From Pseudogymnoascus verrucosus (lineage: Eukaryota): DNA of 64,000 bases. The stretch lies in NCBI GenBank assembly GCA_001662655.1, contig KV460208.1; one strand, 5' to 3'. The notes under the pieces are model-generated. The model did not search any database. It was not told where the DNA came from and saw nothing but the letters and a program-made list of their open reading frames with translations. Of the stretch, positions 1,547 through 35,179 are shown in pieces (position 1 is the stretch's first letter; each line of letters begins with the position of its first letter). A program made the translations under genes and the position numbers.

Positions 1547-3250
1547 ATGTCCGTCCGCGTTCACCTGGACAACCCGCACGCCTTCTACACAAACCTCGAC
1601 TTCATAAGCGGCAAAATCGTGCTGAACCTCCTCACCGATGAGACCATATCCGCCATCGTGGTGAAGCTGGAGGGGGAGAGCAGGACGGTGCTGATGAAGC
1701 CACCACCCATGCCGCATGAGCCAAGGCGGCGCGATGATAGGAGCAGGATAGCCATGGAGAACCACAAGATCTTGTACAGACTGCAGACTGTCTTTCCGAC
1801 TGTGAGCAGCACAACTCCGACTGCCAAGGCGTCGTTCACGCTTGGGGCGGGGCACCACGAGTATCCGTTTAGGTTTAAGATTCCGTACGGACTACCCCTC
1901 CAATGGTTGAAATAACCCACACACTAACGTCTTACGCAGGTTTAATACCATGTGCGGTGACCCGAATATGCAAGCCATCGGCGTTGGGTTGGGTGGCCGC
2001 CTCGGACTCATGGAGATGCCGATGCTCCAGCAACATATCAGAAAACCATTACCCCCTTCCCTAGGCGGTTTCCCAGGTGAAGCAGAGATAAGATACTTCG
2101 TCAAAGTCACAGTCCAGCGGCCGTCGATATGGAAAGAAAACAGGAGAAACGAGATCGGCTTCAAGTTCATGCCCATCGATCGCCCACGCCCCCCTGCCTC
2201 AAATGCAGAAGCGTTTGCACGCCGGCCATACGCTTTCCAAGCTGGCTCGATCTCTTCGAACGGCAAGAAACGAGGGATGTTTTCGCGCCAGCCAACTTCT
2301 TTATCGCCTGTTGCTCCGTCCGTCTTGGTCGACGCGCGACTGCCCAGCCCGTCGATTTTGGTATGCAGGAAACCGATCCCCATGCGCATCATCGTCAAAA
2401 AGCAGAATGAGAGTCCCGAGTACGTGTTTTTAGTCGGGCTGCATGCCGATCTTATCGCCAAGACGGAGGTTAGGGCACAGGATGTGATGCGCGAAGAGCT
2501 GAGCACTTTCCCCATTGTCAACCTCCAGGGCCTCTCTATTCCCATAGGCAATCCCAGTGAACCGGTTGGGACCGAGACGACGCTTGATGATACGCTGTGG
2601 GATCGTGTTCAGCTTCCGCCGACTGTTACGCCTTCGTTTCATATTTGCAATTTGACGCGGAAATATGAGCTTCAAGTACGCGTTGTACTAAGCTACGGAT
2701 ACCCAGGCGAGATTCAGGTACGGACCCCCCCTTTTTCTTCATTCACCCAGTATACCCATTCTGGAGTCATCTGAGATTACCTATGCTAACACCCTCCCAG
2801 CCACAAAAACAAATAATCCCCCTCCGCTTCCCCGTCGAAGTCTACTCCGGCCTCACCCCCTCCCCCGCCCTCCTCAACGCCCTCGCCAACCGCACCTCCA
2901 CCACCACCGCCGCCGCCACCACCACACCCCACGAAGCCCCCGCCATGCCCCCACGCCCCAGCGGCGCCCCAGCCGCCCCGCCCATCGACCCGCTCTACCC
3001 GCCGCAAATGGGCACCGCGAACGCGGACCTGATGGGCGACGCGCCGCCGAGCTATGAGGATGCGATGGCGGATGATATTGGTCCGCTTGATGGACGGAGG
3101 GAGTATAGCGGGGTGGCGAATGAGAATTCGCCTAGTGAGGTGGGGGGGGAGAAGGGGGGGAGAGGGGCGGTGCCGGGGTACTCGGCGCATGACAGCAATG
3201 GGGGAGGGGGAGGTGCGAGTGGAAGCGGGAGTGGGGGGTTTGTTGCTTGA
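1547..3250 (+). CDS. Alpha-arrestin / arrestin-like ubiquitin-ligase adaptor
   Basis: Exons 1547-1884, 1940-2717, 2801-3250 join in frame with GT..CTAAC..CAG introns. Arrestin-N features (ISGKIVLNL, IVVKLEGES, GHHEYPFRFKIP, AEIRYFVKVTV) and a C-terminal PPSY motif. An in-frame ATG at 1499 is an alternative start. Confidence 0.85.
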
Positions 3251-26679: not shown

Positions 26680-26860
26680 CTGAGTATTCATGGCACATAT
26701 CCCAGTTGAAGGACCATCCAACACCTACGACAATTGAATATTCATGTCACATATCCGAGTTGAAGGATTATCCAACATATGCTAAGAAATTTAACTTGCC
26801 TCTACTTGAGTTGAAGGATTCTCCAACACTTACTAGGAAATCCAACCTGCCTATACTAGA
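26680..26860. repeat. Degenerate 51-54 bp tandem repeat, 3 copies
   Basis: AGTTGAAGGAYNNTCCAACA at about 26704, 26758 and 26809. Confidence 0.65.
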
Positions 26861-27909
26861 TGGTATTCCGTTAGGACGCATGTGAATCCTTAAAATAAAC
26901 ATGTTGAAGGGAGCTGATTATGACTGCCCTATAAGACACCCATATACACGTAGACCAACTGAAATAAAGCCAATTAGGTATCTAACACCGACGCACTTGC
27001 AAGGCTTAACTCTAACCATGGCTAACAACTTATCCAACACCAATGCACTTGCAAGGGTTAATTCTAACCGAGGCTACTCGGTAACAACTTATCTACCGCC
27101 GATGCAGTTGTAAGGGTAAATTTCGCCTCTAAAGAAACTCTTTCTTGGATACTGCGTGCCTATTCTAACAAGAGAACCTCCAGGCTCCTCCCGTCTTCTC
27201 AATATATCTACGTAGCTAGGTGTTGTATGCTGACCGTAGCCCCATGGGACAGGTGGATACGATGTTGGGATCGTCGTTGTCACCAGGCACGGAGTAGGAG
27301 CCCTCCACTCCTACGGAATAAGGGGCTCACGATCGGCATAAATACCGTACGCAGGGTGCGTAGAATAGTTAAGTTAATTAATTGATTTGTTATACTATAT
27401 ACGACTATATACTGTGATACTGTACGGAGTACTGCCTAAGGTACTGAGCCGACTGCACTCACTGCCAAAGTGATAATTGCGGCCGTAACGAGGATTGGCA
27501 GCTAATCTGTACGGCGATCCCCGCCGGCCCCCAATTGCCTCCAACACTAGGGTCTTCTAGTCAAGGCTGAAACACTTTTTCCCTGTAGGATTGTTGGAAG
27601 GGCTTCGGCTTCGCCGACGACGAGGAGGGCGAGAGACTTGGCCCTTGTTTGTCCCGCCAAGGCGAAAGCCTTGGCAACCAACACCCTACCTCACCCTACC
27701 TACCTACCTATTTTGGACTTCCTCCTCCGAGAAAGACAATTCTAAGCGCCTAATGCTCGTACGTCGTCCTTCCTATTTGAAAGTCATTCGCTCCGCGAAC
27801 ACGATATAACATTAGTCAGCGAGGTAACATTCGTCGAAGCATTTCTATATAATGCTTGTCTACACACCACTGCATTACATCGTATTCTGCACGCTCGAAA
27901 TAGTCCGTA

Positions 27910-28408: not shown

Positions 28409-28983
28409 GTAGAGATTCAAATGTATTATATAGGGCATTAATCCCAGAACCCACCTGCTGGCGGTGTTTTTGGTTGGTACTTTGAGTATACATAAAGTTT
28501 TTCCCCACCTCTTTATCTATTTAATAAGGCTCTTTCTTCTACACGATTTCTGAGTTATATAAATCATTATTTGTGAATATGTCTAGAACGAAACTTCGCC
28601 CAGCTCAATTCCTCCTGGTTCAGATACGCTTTCCCTACACAGGATGGAGGTGGATAGAAACTTAAGCACAGTTTTACATACCATCGAGGCAAGGCGAAGT
28701 ATTAAGGAGGTTTTTTTTCAATAACATCAACGTCGTCGACATCTACTTAATTATTTGGTATGGTTGATTAAGGTTTGGGACTACCCCGGGTTTTAACATT
28801 TAGCCGCCCCCCCCGCCTAATCTAAACTTTCAACTTCATTGTCATAGGTGAGTAGTCTCATATTTAAAGTTTCAACCCTGCCGCCATAGGTGAGTAGCCT
28901 CATATTTAAAGTTTCAACCCGCCATAGCAGTGTTGAGGTTAGTAGATGGTAGTCTGAACTTCATTCTAGCTTAGGCGGAGGAT

Positions 28984-29281
28984 TGTAAGGATGCCTCCTT
29001 ACTCGGGTTAGTTACGGCCGTCACGTGGCGCCATCGAGACTCGGGGCCGTTACGGGTCAGTCGCGACTGACAGCCTTAGGCACATAGCGTAAGGAAGCCT
29101 TAGGCAAATAGGGAATTAGCTGAGTTGGAGGGGTTTCGGGTATTTAAGGGAACAGCTATAGAGGGTTACATCTTCATCCTTTTTGTATCCTTTGTAGTAG
29201 ACCTATAGGATTGCGCTAACTTCTATCTGACTCGTACTCCTATATGCAACTTCTTGTGATATAGTGCCCTGTGTCCTTACA
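28984..29281. mobile_element. Solo LTR (298 bp) with 5-bp TSD AGGAT
   Basis: Termini TGTAAGG...CCTTACA; AGGAT at 28979-28983 and 29282-29286. Confidence 0.9.
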
Positions 29282-29429
29282 AGGATGGGGAGATGATAGG
29301 ACGTAGGGGGTCCTCTAGACATCCTTAGGATTAGACTTAGAGCTAAGGTAGTTACATGTAGGGAGCTAGGGGCTAGCTAACTAAGTTAGACCTGTTTTAG
29401 ATATAAAGAGGAATAGACTTAAGGGGTTC

Positions 29430-29542
29430 TCTCTTTATCTTTTTTATATCCTTTATAGTAGACCTATAGGATTGTACTAACTTCTATCTAACATACACTT
29501 TTATATGCTACTCCTTATAATATGGTGCCTTATGTCCTTATA
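29430..29542. mobile_element. RIP-mutated remnant of a related LTR (3' part)
   Basis: Aligns with 29170-29281 with mostly C>T/G>A differences; ends CCTTATA instead of CCTTACA. 5' end not found. Confidence 0.8.
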
Positions 29543-29828: not shown

Positions 29829-30501
29829 ACTACTTAAGGTTCTATAGTTTCTTAGAGTTCACTAGATACTATAGAGTTAATTCTAAGCACAGACTACTAA
29901 GAATATCCTCTTTAGGACTTTCTTAAGTATGTGAGGATTAGATAAGAGACAACTTACAACCTAGGGTTTAGGCTGCTAGATCTTCTAGATTCGTTTAAAC
30001 TATTAATTAGTCTCTATATATTAAATTCTACATCTAGTAGGGAACTAGTTAAAGGGTCAGCTTATTTATAGGTTTGCATACATGCTAAGAGGTCACTGCT
30101 AGCTGTGTAGAAGCAGAGAAAGCAACTACCTTTACGAGAACGAATTGTAAGCAGACCTAGTAGGCAATTAACATATTTAGCAGCTAATGACGAACTGTTA
30201 ATACAGCTGAAAGAGGATGACAAATTGCCATGGGACAAAATTGCAGAGTTCTTCCTAGGAAGGACTAAAAGGACGTTGCAAGTGCACTACTGCACAAAGC
30301 TGAAGAACCGCTCGCAGACGTCGAAGTTTAAGAAACGCAAGGGAATATGCCCATTAGGGTTTTTAATGGACCTAGTTAATCCACAGCTTCGAAATGCTCT
30401 TCCTTCCACACCATTTCTAGCAGCAACTGCCGATTCCACCAAGGGTGCTCACAGAGGCATACTATCAACCCCTCCCTCCCCACAATCCACTTCTCCCTAA
30501 C

Positions 30502-30672
30502 CTACTCAAAATAGATAGGGGCATCCAGCACTGTCGAGGCAATGGCAGACCAGAACGTCGTTGTCGACTTAGTATCACTTGGATATACCTTCTTGAAGTG
30601 TCGAGTTCGGTCCTCGAAGCCCTCAAAGGCCCTCCGAGACTGTTTTGTTCTATTCGCTGCCTTTTGACGCAT
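30502..30672 (-). pseudogene. 56-aa stub, possibly the N-terminus of a DUF3435 tyrosine recombinase (Starship captain)
   Basis: MRQKAANRTKQSRRAFEGFEDRTRHFKKVYPSDTK... The resemblance is from memory, helped by its position convergent with the Myb pseudogene. Confidence 0.3.
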
Positions 30673-31239
30673 GGTTGTCGAGGGATAGGAGGTGAAACTT
30701 CGGACAAAGAAACCCTATGGCTTATGCTGCGGAAGGTGGAAAACAATGAGCTCGATGAAGAAGAAAGGAAACCCACGAGTTAATGCAAATGCCTGGCGGA
30801 ACCCAGAATAACGCCCTGGGACACTGAAAGCATGGTGAAAGGAGGCCATCTGAAAGAATCTCAAAGACACTCTAATCAAGACCAGAATGTGCGAGAACGG
30901 TTATGAGACATCCTCATATGATATAAAAATGCGAAGGCGGCAAAAGACGAGCCTCTCTCTGTGTCTTATTTGGGAAGGAACCAACGTAAACTTCACGTAA
31001 AACTTGACAATTATAAGACAGTCTACGCCTAGCTCGGATTCCTATATCCCTCGACGCGTCTAATTAGGAAGTAGCGAAGCACAACCCATCCAAGCGCGCT
31101 TAACACCCAAAATACAAAAAAAAACACCCTCCAAAGCTCAATTCCACCCTCTCTTCTCCAAAAGAACCCCAAGACAGACTCCAATAACCTCCTATCCATG
31201 ATCCCCCCAAAAAAATTGTAAAAAAAAGCAAAAGAACCA

Positions 31240-31419
31240 GGTTCTGATTTCGATGTAGGCAGCTACCCACATCGACTCAGAACCAGTAACCAAACCCTCC
31301 TCACCATTGCGTGTACGGCATCCCGGGCGCCCCCGGGCGCCGAACACACAATGACAATTTGGATTTCATATTACCTGGCGGGATGGGTGAGAGAGCTACC
31401 AACTCAGCCATTCCGCCAG
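31240..31419 (-). ncRNA. Candidate structured ncRNA: three evenly spaced hairpins
   Basis: Inverted repeats at 31240-31284, 31305-31353 and 31375-31419 with 20- and 21-nt linkers. G-U pairs mostly favour the minus strand. Oligo-T tract follows on the minus strand. Confidence 0.55.
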
Positions 31420-34400
31420 ACTTATTGGGGGTGGACTTAGGCTTGGTTATATGGTTTGGTTTGCCGCTTGGTTGGGGAGGGTCAGATGATTGGGGGAGGG
31501 GGGTGGTAGGGGAGAGGAGGTGGCCAGGCACAAGGGGAAGGAACAAGGAGATGGCTTGGGGGTTTGGTAGTTAGAGGACGTAAGCGCGAGATAATGGCAG
31601 GTAGACAACGGAAATGGGTATATACTGTACGGAGACAAACTTGTGAATAACATACACGAGAACCACGCATAATTTGTGTAGACACTTGTCTCACGAATAA
31701 GAACGCCATGGAAATAGAAAGTGTCTGACCCCAATGGCAACCAGCAGCTAAACAGCAAAGGATAAAGCTTCAGGGACGCCGTGAACCCAAACTTTGGAGT
31801 AGACACTTGTCTCACAGACACAGGCACTGACCCAGCCCGACCACAGCATTAGAAGCTGACAAAACCTCCACAGCAAACCCAGCGATTAAATGCACACAAC
31901 GTCGATAACGAGGCTATAAAAAGAAAATCAAAACCTACCAATATCTTCCTACCTTCCGCCCGCAATCTGAGATCGGAGATTCTTGAAGTCGATGTTAGGC
32001 TCAGGCACTGACCGCCACAACATAGGAAACTTGTCAAACCTTCGACTCTCATCAGTCACTCACCGTCACATTCACCCTCTCAGCCCCTGAAACAGGTCTC
32101 AACCCCCTCCACCGTCCTCCCTTCCCCGCAAACCCTTCGATCACCCACCAAGGCGCGACAAACACCACCCCCAACACCCCCAACACCACCACCCGCGACA
32201 GTCACACAACCTGACGTCGTTGTAGCACAAAACCCCCTCCTCGCCATGCAGCAAGGCTCATCGCAGCTCTCAAGCAAACGTCAAGGAAACGTTGCGCGAC
32301 ATACCACCCTCCGCCAAGCATCGCGCTCATGCACGCACTCTCCTCGCACAGGTCCCTTTCGGCCGAGGTGGGGCGGCGCTGCAAGGGACTATCGGATTAT
32401 CACCGTGCTAGCGGTCTTTGGGACGCCGGCGCGCTTGGTCCGCTGTCAGGCTTTCTGGGGGGGGAGATGTTGGGTTTCTTGACAACGAGTGCGTGTGTGT
32501 ATAGTATGTTGATGAGGGTGGGTGGTGTGGGATTGGGAAGAGGCGACATATGTTTTCTTCGCGGTGTCGGTGTGAGGGGTGGGAGGGGTGCAAGGTAGGT
32601 TGGGGATAGGATCGTGGATCAGATTCATGTCTCTCTCGGTGGGACGAAATCAGGGAATTCGTCGTGATGCTGTTTATAAAGCATCTCGGACCACCCCATA
32701 GCTGACTTGCAATAGGTGCCGAGTCGCGGCTGTAACCACTCCTCTTTGTGGCCGAGTCTGGGGGGCGACGAGGGAAGGTCTGACCTTACCCCATCGTCGA
32801 CATGCCGTGCGCGCGCCTGTGCCACTCCTAACGCCGTTTGTACCTACGCACAAGCTATTCCAACATCTGTGCAACAGCAGTCCGCCGACGATGACGATCA
32901 TCCAATATCGGAAATCACGACTCGCTCACCTACCAATCTGCCGTGGAAGAATACCGACTCCCCATGCGGTACAAACCCTCACGCTCCCACAGCATCACGA
33001 CATCCGAAAAGCATCACACCTCCAAACCCCATTTCCCCGCATCCCAAAATCCCAAAATCCACACCTGTCACCCTACGAGTCGTGACCCAAACATAAACCC
33101 CTCAGATCTCACAAAGTAAGTAATTCGCCCTCTCCTCTTCCAGACAAAATAAAATCCACTCCCTAGCGCCCCTCTCCAACGCAGAACATAAACGCCACGA
33201 CCAACCAGACGAGGTCTAAGGACTGCAGGCCCAACGCATGGCAGCATGCGATCGCGGCTGGTGGTACGACATTCCTGAACGGTACAAATGGCCCCGTCAA
33301 CTCCCCGTCAACTCCCCCGCTGGCTGGCCCCCCTCGACCGAAAATGCGCGATATGCACGAGTCGAGTCGAGTCGCAGGCCTCGTTTTTCGCCACTGCCTG
33401 GCCGCGCACGCAGGTGCAAAAAAAGTGACAGTTCTGCAGGAAGTAAGGGGGGATTGAATACAATTGCCGTTTTCTCCTCCCCCTTTTCTCGCCTTTTCTC
33501 GGCGCTGGGACTCTATCTACTCGCCATAATCGCCATATCCAGTAAGGGAAATCCCAGTCCCGCCGGGAGAAGTCCGTTCCAAGTGGGCCGATTATTGGCT
33601 TGCCATACCCACTGTTCTGGACGGGACGGGCGAGTTGTCGACCCGCAGGTAGGTGGGAGCGGAGGGGATTGGTGCGTGGACAGGGGGATGTGGACACTAT
33701 ATGTCCACTATGCTTGATCATGCTTGACGTCTTTCGGGCCCCTGTCGGACTGAACCCACGGCGCCATTTTGCGAGGGGATGGTCGAGGGGTAGGGGGTAG
33801 ACCAGAGCGTCGGTGGCGAATGGCATTTACCGTTCACTGACTACGGAGTACTACACTGATGCTACTGTACCGTACTTGAAAGAGTGGTAAGTGGTAAAAA
33901 GAGGTACGTACGCGCAACACAGGTGGGTGCGGAGAAAATGGGGGCACGACTCTATCCCCAACCTGCTCGAGAATCAAGTTTCGTCGCTGGCGCAGGTGTT
34001 CAGTCAAGACATGATAATTGACGTTGGGATGGGATGGGAGCGACAGCATACGTATGTTGGGATGGCTGGCGCGCGTGTCGCAGTTAACTGCTTGCATCAT
34101 ATCGATCTCATAGTTCCTAACACACACGATACGATGCACAATTGCCAGTTTGGGGTAGAAAGGGAGACCAGCGTTGTGGGGGTGGGTGGATGTTGGTGGA
34201 CTAGAACACCCGACGATGCTGGGAACTTGCTAGCCGCTAGAGGGCGAGATTGGCACCTTGGCACCGCAAACAGCGCGGGAAGGTCGATTGATTGCCCAGA
34301 TTAAGTATCTCATACCACCGATTTGCTTGTTTGCTGTCGCCGTTGCGATTATTTGCCCATTATTCCGTATCCCTTTCATTTTATTCTATTTTATTTTAAT

Positions 34401-35179
34401 AGTATAGACATCTATTGTAACGGGAATAATATGGCCATTGCGCGCATTCTAATATCGAAACTCAGCGATATTGGGTTGGTCCTGGGATGGTTTCGTAGTT
34501 AGGCAGGGTATCAGAGACAGTAAGTACTCGCGCCGTAATCTGCCAGCATTTGGGGGTGTGAAGTGACCTCTCCCTCTCCCTCTCCACCATCCACCACTAC
34601 CCCCAATCCACCTCCACCACCACCCAATATTGTCTCTCAGGGTGAAACCAGGTAAACCCACTCGCTCCCTTATCCTTTTCACTCCCTTCACTCCCTTCAC
34701 TCCCTCACCCTCACCCCAACTCTCTCTTCGCCCCCCTCAAGAACAATCAGGAATCCCCAGGAGATATACTTCTACACTTGCCCTGTCCACTACTTTGCTG
34801 TCTGTGGAATCTGTGGGATACTTCAATTGGTTCCTGTTCTGTTGAGAGAGAGATATATACCTTGGGTCGCCTGCAACTCGGAAAGATACAGAGAGAGAGA
34901 GCGGAGTAGGGTGGGACAACTGCTACACTATCACGACATCATCGGATTGTCTCTTTGCGCTACCATCAGCCCCTCGATTACAATACCAACCAGTTTATAT
35001 CCACGATTACCACCTCCCGTCGAAAGTTTATCCAGTCGACAGCCACTCCTTCAGTATATCTGATCGACACCTCGCTCTCCCTTCACCACCACCAATCGAC
35101 CTTACAACACCACCACACCACCTGTCACTCCAACAACCACACTCTCCCTCAACCTCCCACACTCCTACACTCCCACACA

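Follow-up and report, generated by a model that had tools for sequence, protein, structure and literature searches.

On the minus strand of contig KV460208.1 from Pseudogymnoascus verrucosus, within a 64,000-nucleotide stretch (the window), three hairpins at positions 31240–31419 may together constitute one compact, self-contained gene for a structured RNA of ~205 nt whose layout is of the RNA polymerase III (Pol III) type. We give this reading roughly an even chance of being correct. That a discrete RNA gene lies on the minus strand at all is a matter of even to marginally better than even odds, and, granted such a gene, Pol III is probably its polymerase. What was seen directly comprises the structure, the bias of its G-U pairs to one strand, the motifs with the distances between them, a discrete unit elsewhere, and a diverged second copy. 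The candidate RNA unit and its parts, given in window positions and in the order in which they would be transcribed, are as follows.

31221–31430, minus strand: the whole candidate RNA unit, ~200–210 nt, comprising a 5′ hairpin, a long central arm, a 3′ hairpin, and a U tail.
31375–31419, minus strand: HP3, the hairpin nearest the 5′ end; 45 nt, 16–18 pairs, with GGUAGCU in the loop.
31354–31374 and 31285–31304: linkers of 21 and 20 nt, respectively, read from the sequence.
31288–31373, minus strand: the central arm, made of HP2 and the paired linkers; also present in the whole-unit fold.
31305–31353, minus strand: HP2; 49 nt, 21 pairs, with a GC-rich top.
31240–31284, minus strand: HP1, the last hairpin of the RNA; 45 nt, 19 pairs, with an AGCU tetraloop within GGUAGCU.

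A sequence-only reading of this DNA had described three near-perfect hairpins of 45, 49, and 45 nt joined by linkers of 20 and 21 nt, and this arrangement was reproduced exactly. When each hairpin was compared with 200 dinucleotide shuffles on both strands, all three folded below their shuffled controls. HP1 reached −30.6 kcal/mol on the minus strand (z −6.6) and −23.6 kcal/mol on the plus strand (z −6.7), HP2 reached −36.9 (z −5.0) and −30.5 kcal/mol (z −5.4), and HP3 reached −24.5 (z −3.5; 2 of 200 shuffles at least as low) and −29.9 kcal/mol (z −6.7). When a 60-nt frame was slid along the entire window, the minus-strand minimum fell at HP2 (−38.4, against a mean of −10.9 and an SD of 5.4), with HP1 among the 40 lowest windows on the minus strand and HP3 among the 40 lowest on the plus strand. 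Moreover, HP3 was the sole match in the 64 kb to a strict scan for ungapped inverted repeats (13 or more paired positions, no more than 2 mismatches, loop of 3–14 nt).

The unit as a whole is more exceptional than its parts. On the minus strand, 31221–31430 folds to −103.2 kcal/mol, whereas its shuffles average −67.2 (z −8.0; none of 200 as low), and on the plus strand to −87.9 kcal/mol (z −7.6). It ranks first among 608 tiled windows of 210 nt, with a GC-corrected z of −3.46 against −1.92 for the runner-up, in a half-overlapping tiling of the minus strand that was aligned on the unit and thus somewhat favors it. With three hairpins at z −3.5 to −6.7 and a unit at z −8.0, the locus has stable stem-loops on one strand of the kind expected of a microRNA-like RNA (milRNA) precursor. 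The second-lowest raw energy among the 210-nt tiles, −102.7 kcal/mol, belongs to 2871–3080 on the minus strand, a segment of 72% GC that is unremarkable once GC content is corrected for.

The two outer hairpins share a loop motif, as had been noted from the sequence: GGTAGCT lies in the minus-strand loops of both HP1 (31267–31261) and HP3 (31400–31394). This 7-mer is common in the window (5 found, 5.47 expected) and is notable only for sitting in both loops. The AGCU core of GGUAGCU is self-complementary, and on the minus strand of HP1 this AGCU forms a tetraloop (31261–31264) that caps the 19-pair stem. AGNN tetraloops mark substrates of the yeast RNase III Rnt1, which would offer a further possible cleavage route for HP1.

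Pairing overall favors an RNA from the minus strand, and for the core stems by themselves the bias is modest. The earlier claim of a G-U bias toward this strand held up, with 2, 2, and 2 G-U pairs in HP1, HP2, and HP3 on the minus strand and 0, 0, and 1 on the plus strand, the single wobble in HP3 that favors plus having also been called correctly. The difference is larger for the central arm, which on the minus strand has 33 pairs, including 7 G-U pairs, and an energy of −46.4 kcal/mol, versus 21 pairs, none of them G-U, and −31.9 kcal/mol on the plus strand; pairing of one linker with the other extends the arm on the minus strand only. Because the unit folds to a lower energy on the minus strand (−103.2 versus −87.9 kcal/mol), G-U pairs are biased to that strand, and T runs lie at its 3′ end, we take minus to be the sense strand.

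Signals resembling those of Pol III genes flank and overlap the unit on this strand.

31451–31447, minus strand: TATA-like element TATAA, 21–30 nt upstream of the inferred 5′ end.
31410–31399, minus strand: A-box-like sequence TGGCTGAGTTGG located in HP3 (5′ arm and loop), matching tRNA positions 8–19.
31346–31336, minus strand: weak B-box candidate TGTTCGGCGCC, which departs from the consensus at 2 positions and lies 64 nt past the start of the A box.
31233–31209, minus strand: oligo-T terminator region with T4 (31233–31230), T8 (31227–31220), and T7 (31215–31209).

We assign a role to TATAA on the assumption that it acts as in those Pol III genes that use upstream TATA elements. It falls within 31403–31463, a stretch that is kept by the diverged second copy described below. 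A start at 31421–31430 is where TATAA would place initiation and also where the longer of two contigs from other organisms ends. The A-box-like sequence fits the A-box consensus, TRGCNNAGTNGG, exactly and lies at about +12 to +21 from this start, in line with the usual placement of the A box in type 2 Pol III genes, some 10–20 nt past the start; because it is on the sense strand and 12–21 nt past the start, the match gains weight. At the other end, T4, T8, and T7 all lie at most 31 nt past HP1, in agreement with the earlier report of T runs at 31209–31234, and form a candidate oligo-T terminator of the Pol III kind. No T run lies between the hairpins, and they would therefore be made as a single RNA. 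The segment from 31430 to 31600, just upstream of the unit, is a tract of ~170 nt that is G-rich on the plus strand and pyrimidine-rich on the minus strand.

Evidence that the hairpins and the T-run end belong to one discrete unit comes from other organisms. A search of public sequencing runs with 31050–31750 returned 11 runs from 8 studies, of which 1 holds all of the sampled words and 10 hold 7–25% of them. Runs X2, X3, X6, and X8 were aligned to 30800–32000, a set that leaves aside X4, X5, X7, and X9–X11 (shares 0.07–0.17), and the sequence of the unit is thereby found in contigs of at least four other organisms. X6 and X8 stem from different organisms and different studies, and in each of them a single contig matches within 30800–32000. 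These short contigs measure 191 nt (31221–31411) and 210 nt (31221–31430), differ from the window at 5 positions each, and start at the same base, 31221, within the T8 run; the longer ends at most 10 nt from the start predicted by TATAA and the A box. The hairpin cluster with its T-run end thus behaves as a discrete unit elsewhere. What was sequenced in X6 and X8 is either an RNA or else a transcribed region that is conserved while its flanks vary from copy to copy.

The close relatives X2 and X3 carry the whole stretch at ~93–94% identity, in a contig of 2157 nt (X2) and in contigs of 1356 and 827 nt (X3). Among the indels listed for the orthologous contigs, none lies within 31204–31477 and 6 lie just outside, a list that excludes 7 further indels. 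X2 also has a second locus, on a contig of 5981 nt, that matches 31220–31297 and 31403–31463 and has between them a middle of 105 nt, versus 106 nt in the window, that is too diverged to align. This locus keeps HP1, where the indels fall at the internal loop, and its loose ends, compared by eye, still resemble the flanks in the window on both sides. It resembles a segmental duplicate, now diverged, in which the upstream or promoter region is included, and since the similarity continues into both flanks we do not read it as a retroposed copy. By eye the second copy also resembles the first ~30 nt of the 31430–31600 tract, which may belong to the promoter region. Within the 64-kb window itself, no second copy of the unit was found.

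Taken together, these observations are the basis on which we infer transcription, the use of Pol III, and a function of the product as RNA. Under the reading of a compact Pol III-type gene, TATAA (31451–31447) and the A box (31410–31399) would set initiation near 31421–31430. The polymerase would then transcribe HP3, next the central arm formed by HP2 and the paired linkers, and lastly HP1, before passing T4 and stopping within T8 (31227–31220) so as to leave a U tail. By analogy with the Pol III-made pri-milRNAs of Neurospora, the near-perfect 19–21-bp stems of HP1 and the central arm might be cut to small RNAs. A role as a small-RNA precursor is possible, although taken over all readings it would be unlikely, and the same grade applies to a stable protein-bound RNA. 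Regarding function, we lean slightly to small-RNA processing and hold a stable protein-bound RNA to be about equally likely.

Several observations count against a Pol III-type gene on the minus strand. Among the promoter signals, the A-box consensus turns up 2 times over the two strands of the window, where 0.86 would be expected, so that the match draws its weight from its position. If transcription starts at 31430, TATAA would stand at −21, nearer than the usual −25 to −30. The canonical B box has no match anywhere in the window, and candidates with 2 mismatches occur there at chance level (136 found versus 197 expected); GGTTCTGAGTC in HP1 resembles a B box only when one base is skipped. 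Given the lack of a canonical B box, we class the gene candidate as Pol III-like, its layout being TATA plus A box, and not as standard type 2.

Strand assignment and the foreign copies also furnish adverse points. HP3 by itself folds better on the plus strand (−29.9 versus −24.5 kcal/mol), and in the core hairpins the wobble pairs that close mismatches favor the minus strand by only 4:1. None of the 11 runs is recorded as RNA, a result that does not bear on expression. The kind of library is unrecorded for X6 and X8, and the short contigs of these two may be DNA, for example, from several near-identical gene copies with differing flanks. In the second copy of X2, the 5′ arm of HP3 is retained but its 3′ arm falls in the diverged block, so HP3 may not be preserved there. 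Finally, the listed substitutions reach only 31213 and so are silent both on covariation and on conservation of the unit relative to its flanks.

Foremost among the other explanations is that the same Pol III-type gene makes a stable RNA that serves as a scaffold for protein, like the EBER and VA RNAs, the Y RNAs, or the rodent 4.5S RNAs, with the GGUAGCU loops and the U tail acting as sites of protein binding or loop–loop contact. We regard this proposal as unlikely overall. The foreign contigs of X6 and X8 are full-length, as would be expected for an RNA that accumulates whole, and in them all 191–210 nt, loops and linkers included, are kept with 5 differences each. These 5 differences may mean little, should X6 and X8 diverge little from the organism of the window across the genome. 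Two loops with a common GGUAGCU and a self-complementary AGCU core would also suit a scaffold. Stable cellular RNAs seldom have near-perfect 19–21-bp stems closed by 4-nt loops, a type of duplex cut by Dicer, which speaks against this proposal, and no protein partner can be named. A promoter precedent does exist: genes for 4.5SH and 4.5SI RNAs pair A and B boxes with a TATA-like box at −31/−24 (PMC10137851).

We consider it unlikely that the locus makes no functional RNA and that the hairpins are DNA-level palindromes, the relic of a mobile or duplicated element, with the short contigs of X6 and X8 being repeat unitigs. The locus does lie within ~8 kb that lacks convincing genes, tandem and repeat-induced point mutation (RIP)-like repeats occur 2–4.5 kb away, one relative (X2) has a diverged second copy, and repeat unitigs stop at repeat borders. 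However, the unit is single-copy in the window and the relatives' contigs are unbroken at the element. Neither terminal inverted repeats nor an A-rich tail on the A-box strand was seen on reading the sequence of the unit, and there is no tRNA cloverleaf. The second copy in X2 is similar into both flanks by eye, unlike a product of retroposition, and a G-U bias to one strand is not expected of DNA palindromes.

Comparably improbable, and slightly more so, is a longer RNA made by RNA polymerase II (Pol II) from the TATATA near 31620, in which the three hairpins follow a C-rich leader and the transcript is either a polycistronic precursor or a long non-coding RNA. This corresponds to the arrangement originally proposed from the sequence, of which the compact hairpin RNA ending in oligo-U finds support and the TATATA promoter with its C-rich leader does not, given that the unit ends at 31411 or 31430. 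TATATA is indeed present within 31619–31625, with a pyrimidine-rich tract downstream of it on the minus strand, and tracts of this sort stand ahead of the start site in many fungal Pol II genes. The close relatives conserve the whole of 31214–32000 better than 30800–31213 (in X2, ~30 substitutions over 787 nt versus ~40 over 414 nt), and the 431-nt stretch folds on the minus strand with z −3.2. Yet the 210-nt unit has a far stronger z (−8.0), and thus the leader adds no structure. The contigs of X6 and X8 end at 31411 and 31430 and contain nothing of 31431–31630, which places TATATA and the C-rich tract upstream of the conserved unit, TATATA by 190 nt. Furthermore, T4, T8, and T7 directly past the last hairpin form a Pol III signal and not a Pol II end. 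The nearer TATAA (31451–31447) and A box (31410–31399) fit better than the TATATA.

Known identities were also examined. Neither a high-copy repeat nor a known RNA family, the two identifications that the sequence-only reading had set against itself, was found. The unit occurs once in the window, and the contigs of X2 (record 1) and X3 (record 4) run unbroken through the locus, which argues against a high-copy repeat. Rfam 15 gave no match at the gathering threshold in the whole window, ruling out its known families, and permissive scans of 1.4 kb and 266 nt with E values up to 10 gave only chance-level hits, mir-627 (15.4 bits versus 86) and an 18-nt AgrB. ARAGORN found no tRNA gene in the window, even with relaxed thresholds and introns allowed, and the tRNA model was absent from the Rfam E-value scans; with no cloverleaf in the ARAGORN runs, a tRNA or degenerate tRNA is ruled out. 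A tRNA-derived short interspersed nuclear element (SINE) does not agree with the single copy in the window, the similar flanks of the X2 loci, or a sense strand that ends in T runs. An untranslated region of a neighboring gene is unlikely because the sole nearby Pfam-positive open reading frame (ORF), which is Myb-like, is non-coding-like and no coding-like ORF lies in 30065–34906. In a search for targets elsewhere in the window, the unit showed only chance complementarity, in matches of 12–20 nt.

An 18-mer from the arm and loop of HP3 occurs in metagenome loci (L001–L054), none of which (0 of 54) matches the window at 30500–32499 by blastn with E values up to 1e-3. These are chance occurrences, mostly, by eye, of one unrelated widespread repeat, in which the 18-mer always lies in one conserved context, beside ...GGTTCATGG. 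The repeat is probably the start of a mobile-element gene read on the other strand. The 18-mer was not found in the literature searched, and the 15 best matches of a literature search on small RNAs of Pseudogymnoascus included no paper on small or non-coding RNAs in that genus.

Comparison with described systems sharpens what the proposed Pol III-type gene would be. In Neurospora crassa, milR-1 to milR-4 come from intergenic, short, hairpin-forming loci with a TATA-like element near the start and a T cluster after the small RNA, all of which the candidate resembles (PMC3547838). Of these, pri-milR-1 is ~170 nt, intergenic, made by Pol III in a manner dependent on TATA-like elements, and carries a T cluster at its end, with no A or B box predicted for milR-1 (PMC3547838). 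The incomplete box set at the candidate therefore has a precedent. Unlike the Neurospora loci, the candidate has three hairpins per unit, a good match to the A box, and a host among the Leotiomycetes. Small RNAs and Pol III dependence are demonstrated for the Neurospora loci (PMC3547838), whereas the candidate is known only from its sequence. The sequence-only reading had also implied a Neurospora setting for this DNA, which did not hold: the closest named homologue of the product of a neighboring transporter ORF is from Pseudogymnoascus, at 90% identity.

Viral Pol III units provide a second comparison. Their hairpins yield small RNAs without Pol II or a Drosha-type entry step. The tRNA-miRNA RNAs of murine gammaherpesvirus 68 and the miRNA cluster of bovine leukemia virus likewise combine a 5′ tRNA-type internal promoter element, pre-miRNA-like hairpins, and oligo-T. 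The units of murine gammaherpesvirus 68 open with a full cloverleaf, whereas the candidate has only tRNA positions 8–21, inside a hairpin; the hairpins of bovine leukemia virus are separate units, each closed by a terminator, whereas the candidate has no T run between hairpins. The candidate also differs from the viral units in being cellular and fungal.

The EBER and VA RNAs and the 4.5SH and 4.5SI RNAs (PMC10137851) are like the candidate in having 100–200 nt, stem-loops, an upstream TATA-like element with an internal A box, and a U tail. Those RNAs have a B box and imperfect stems and are bound by proteins, whereas the candidate has no B box, near-perfect stems, and no homology in Rfam. With tRNA genes and SINEs the candidate shares a 12-nt match to the D arm and A box and a copy number above one in at least one genome; unlike them it lacks a cloverleaf and an A-rich tail, has a low copy number, and has a duplicate whose flanks are alike.

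For fungal milRNAs, the published rules call for discrete, strand-specific reads of 19–25 nt from an arm together with the star strand, replicated across libraries, and their tiers call for an intergenic location without overlap with coding sequence, a transposon, or an Rfam structural RNA (PMC9757828). The candidate is intergenic in this sense, with no coding-like ORF nearby, no Rfam match, and a single copy in the window. Most reported fungal microRNA-like loci fall short of basic annotation standards (PMC9757828), and for this reason we do not claim membership in the class on the strength of sequence.

Few non-coding RNA genes beyond the universal ones are known in filamentous fungi. The candidate has clear borders, an exceptional structure, and signals like those of promoters and terminators; it occurs in several species and has a diverged paralogue. 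An RNA from this locus, if it exists, would represent a new family of a known kind, either the small structured RNAs or the hairpin precursors that Pol III makes, and its novelty would lie in the three-hairpin build and in a paralogue whose ends are kept and whose middle is replaced. Should the small-RNA version be true, Pol III-made hairpin precursors, so far demonstrated in Neurospora, would occur also in Leotiomycetes. If the locus is not transcribed, it is merely unusually structured intergenic DNA. A more speculative suggestion, which we regard as doubtful, is that the locus belongs to a small set of related fungal “cassette” genes read by Pol III, in which the ends are constant and the central hairpin is exchanged for another of equal length. 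The constant frame would consist of the promoter-proximal 5′ part with the A box and the 3′ hairpin with the terminator, as kept in the X2 copy whose middle 105–106 nt has diverged. Such a family would permit modular expression of different small RNAs or guide-like arms from a conserved scaffold in several species.

The surroundings of the unit contain little that resembles coding sequence, as the earlier statement that there is no credible ORF had anticipated. None of the ORFs of at least 70 amino acids in 30065–34906 scores above 0.10 in the codon-usage log-ratio, that is, all have non-coding-like codon usage, whereas the nine long ORFs used for training score 0.16–0.39. The neighborhood thus lacks a coding-like ORF for ~3.5 kb to the right and, to the left, down to 30065. 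A scan for bacterial-type promoters and terminators found none and is of no relevance to a fungus. To the right, 32000–34800 is a stretch of ~2.8 kb with 54–57% GC and long ORFs on both strands, none of them coding-like; in these ORFs the only Pfam match is a sub-threshold AmpE at 34656–35060.

To the left, a Myb-like DNA-binding domain (Pfam PF13921, E 2.3e-06) is encoded by the short plus-strand ORF 30111–30497, whose codon usage is non-coding-like and whose stop is separated from the hairpins by ~740 nt. This ORF may represent either a gene in decay or a small gene that evolves fast. Farther left, 2–4.5 kb from the hairpins, tandem and nearby direct repeats occupy 26757–27135, 28820–28903, and 29117–29540, with repeat units of 51, 46–59, and 42 nt and two 163-nt copies that lie 261 nt apart and share 74% identity. 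By eye they show many C/T transitions, and the stretch is AT-richer and gene-poor. These repeats may be a decayed RIP-like repeat relic.

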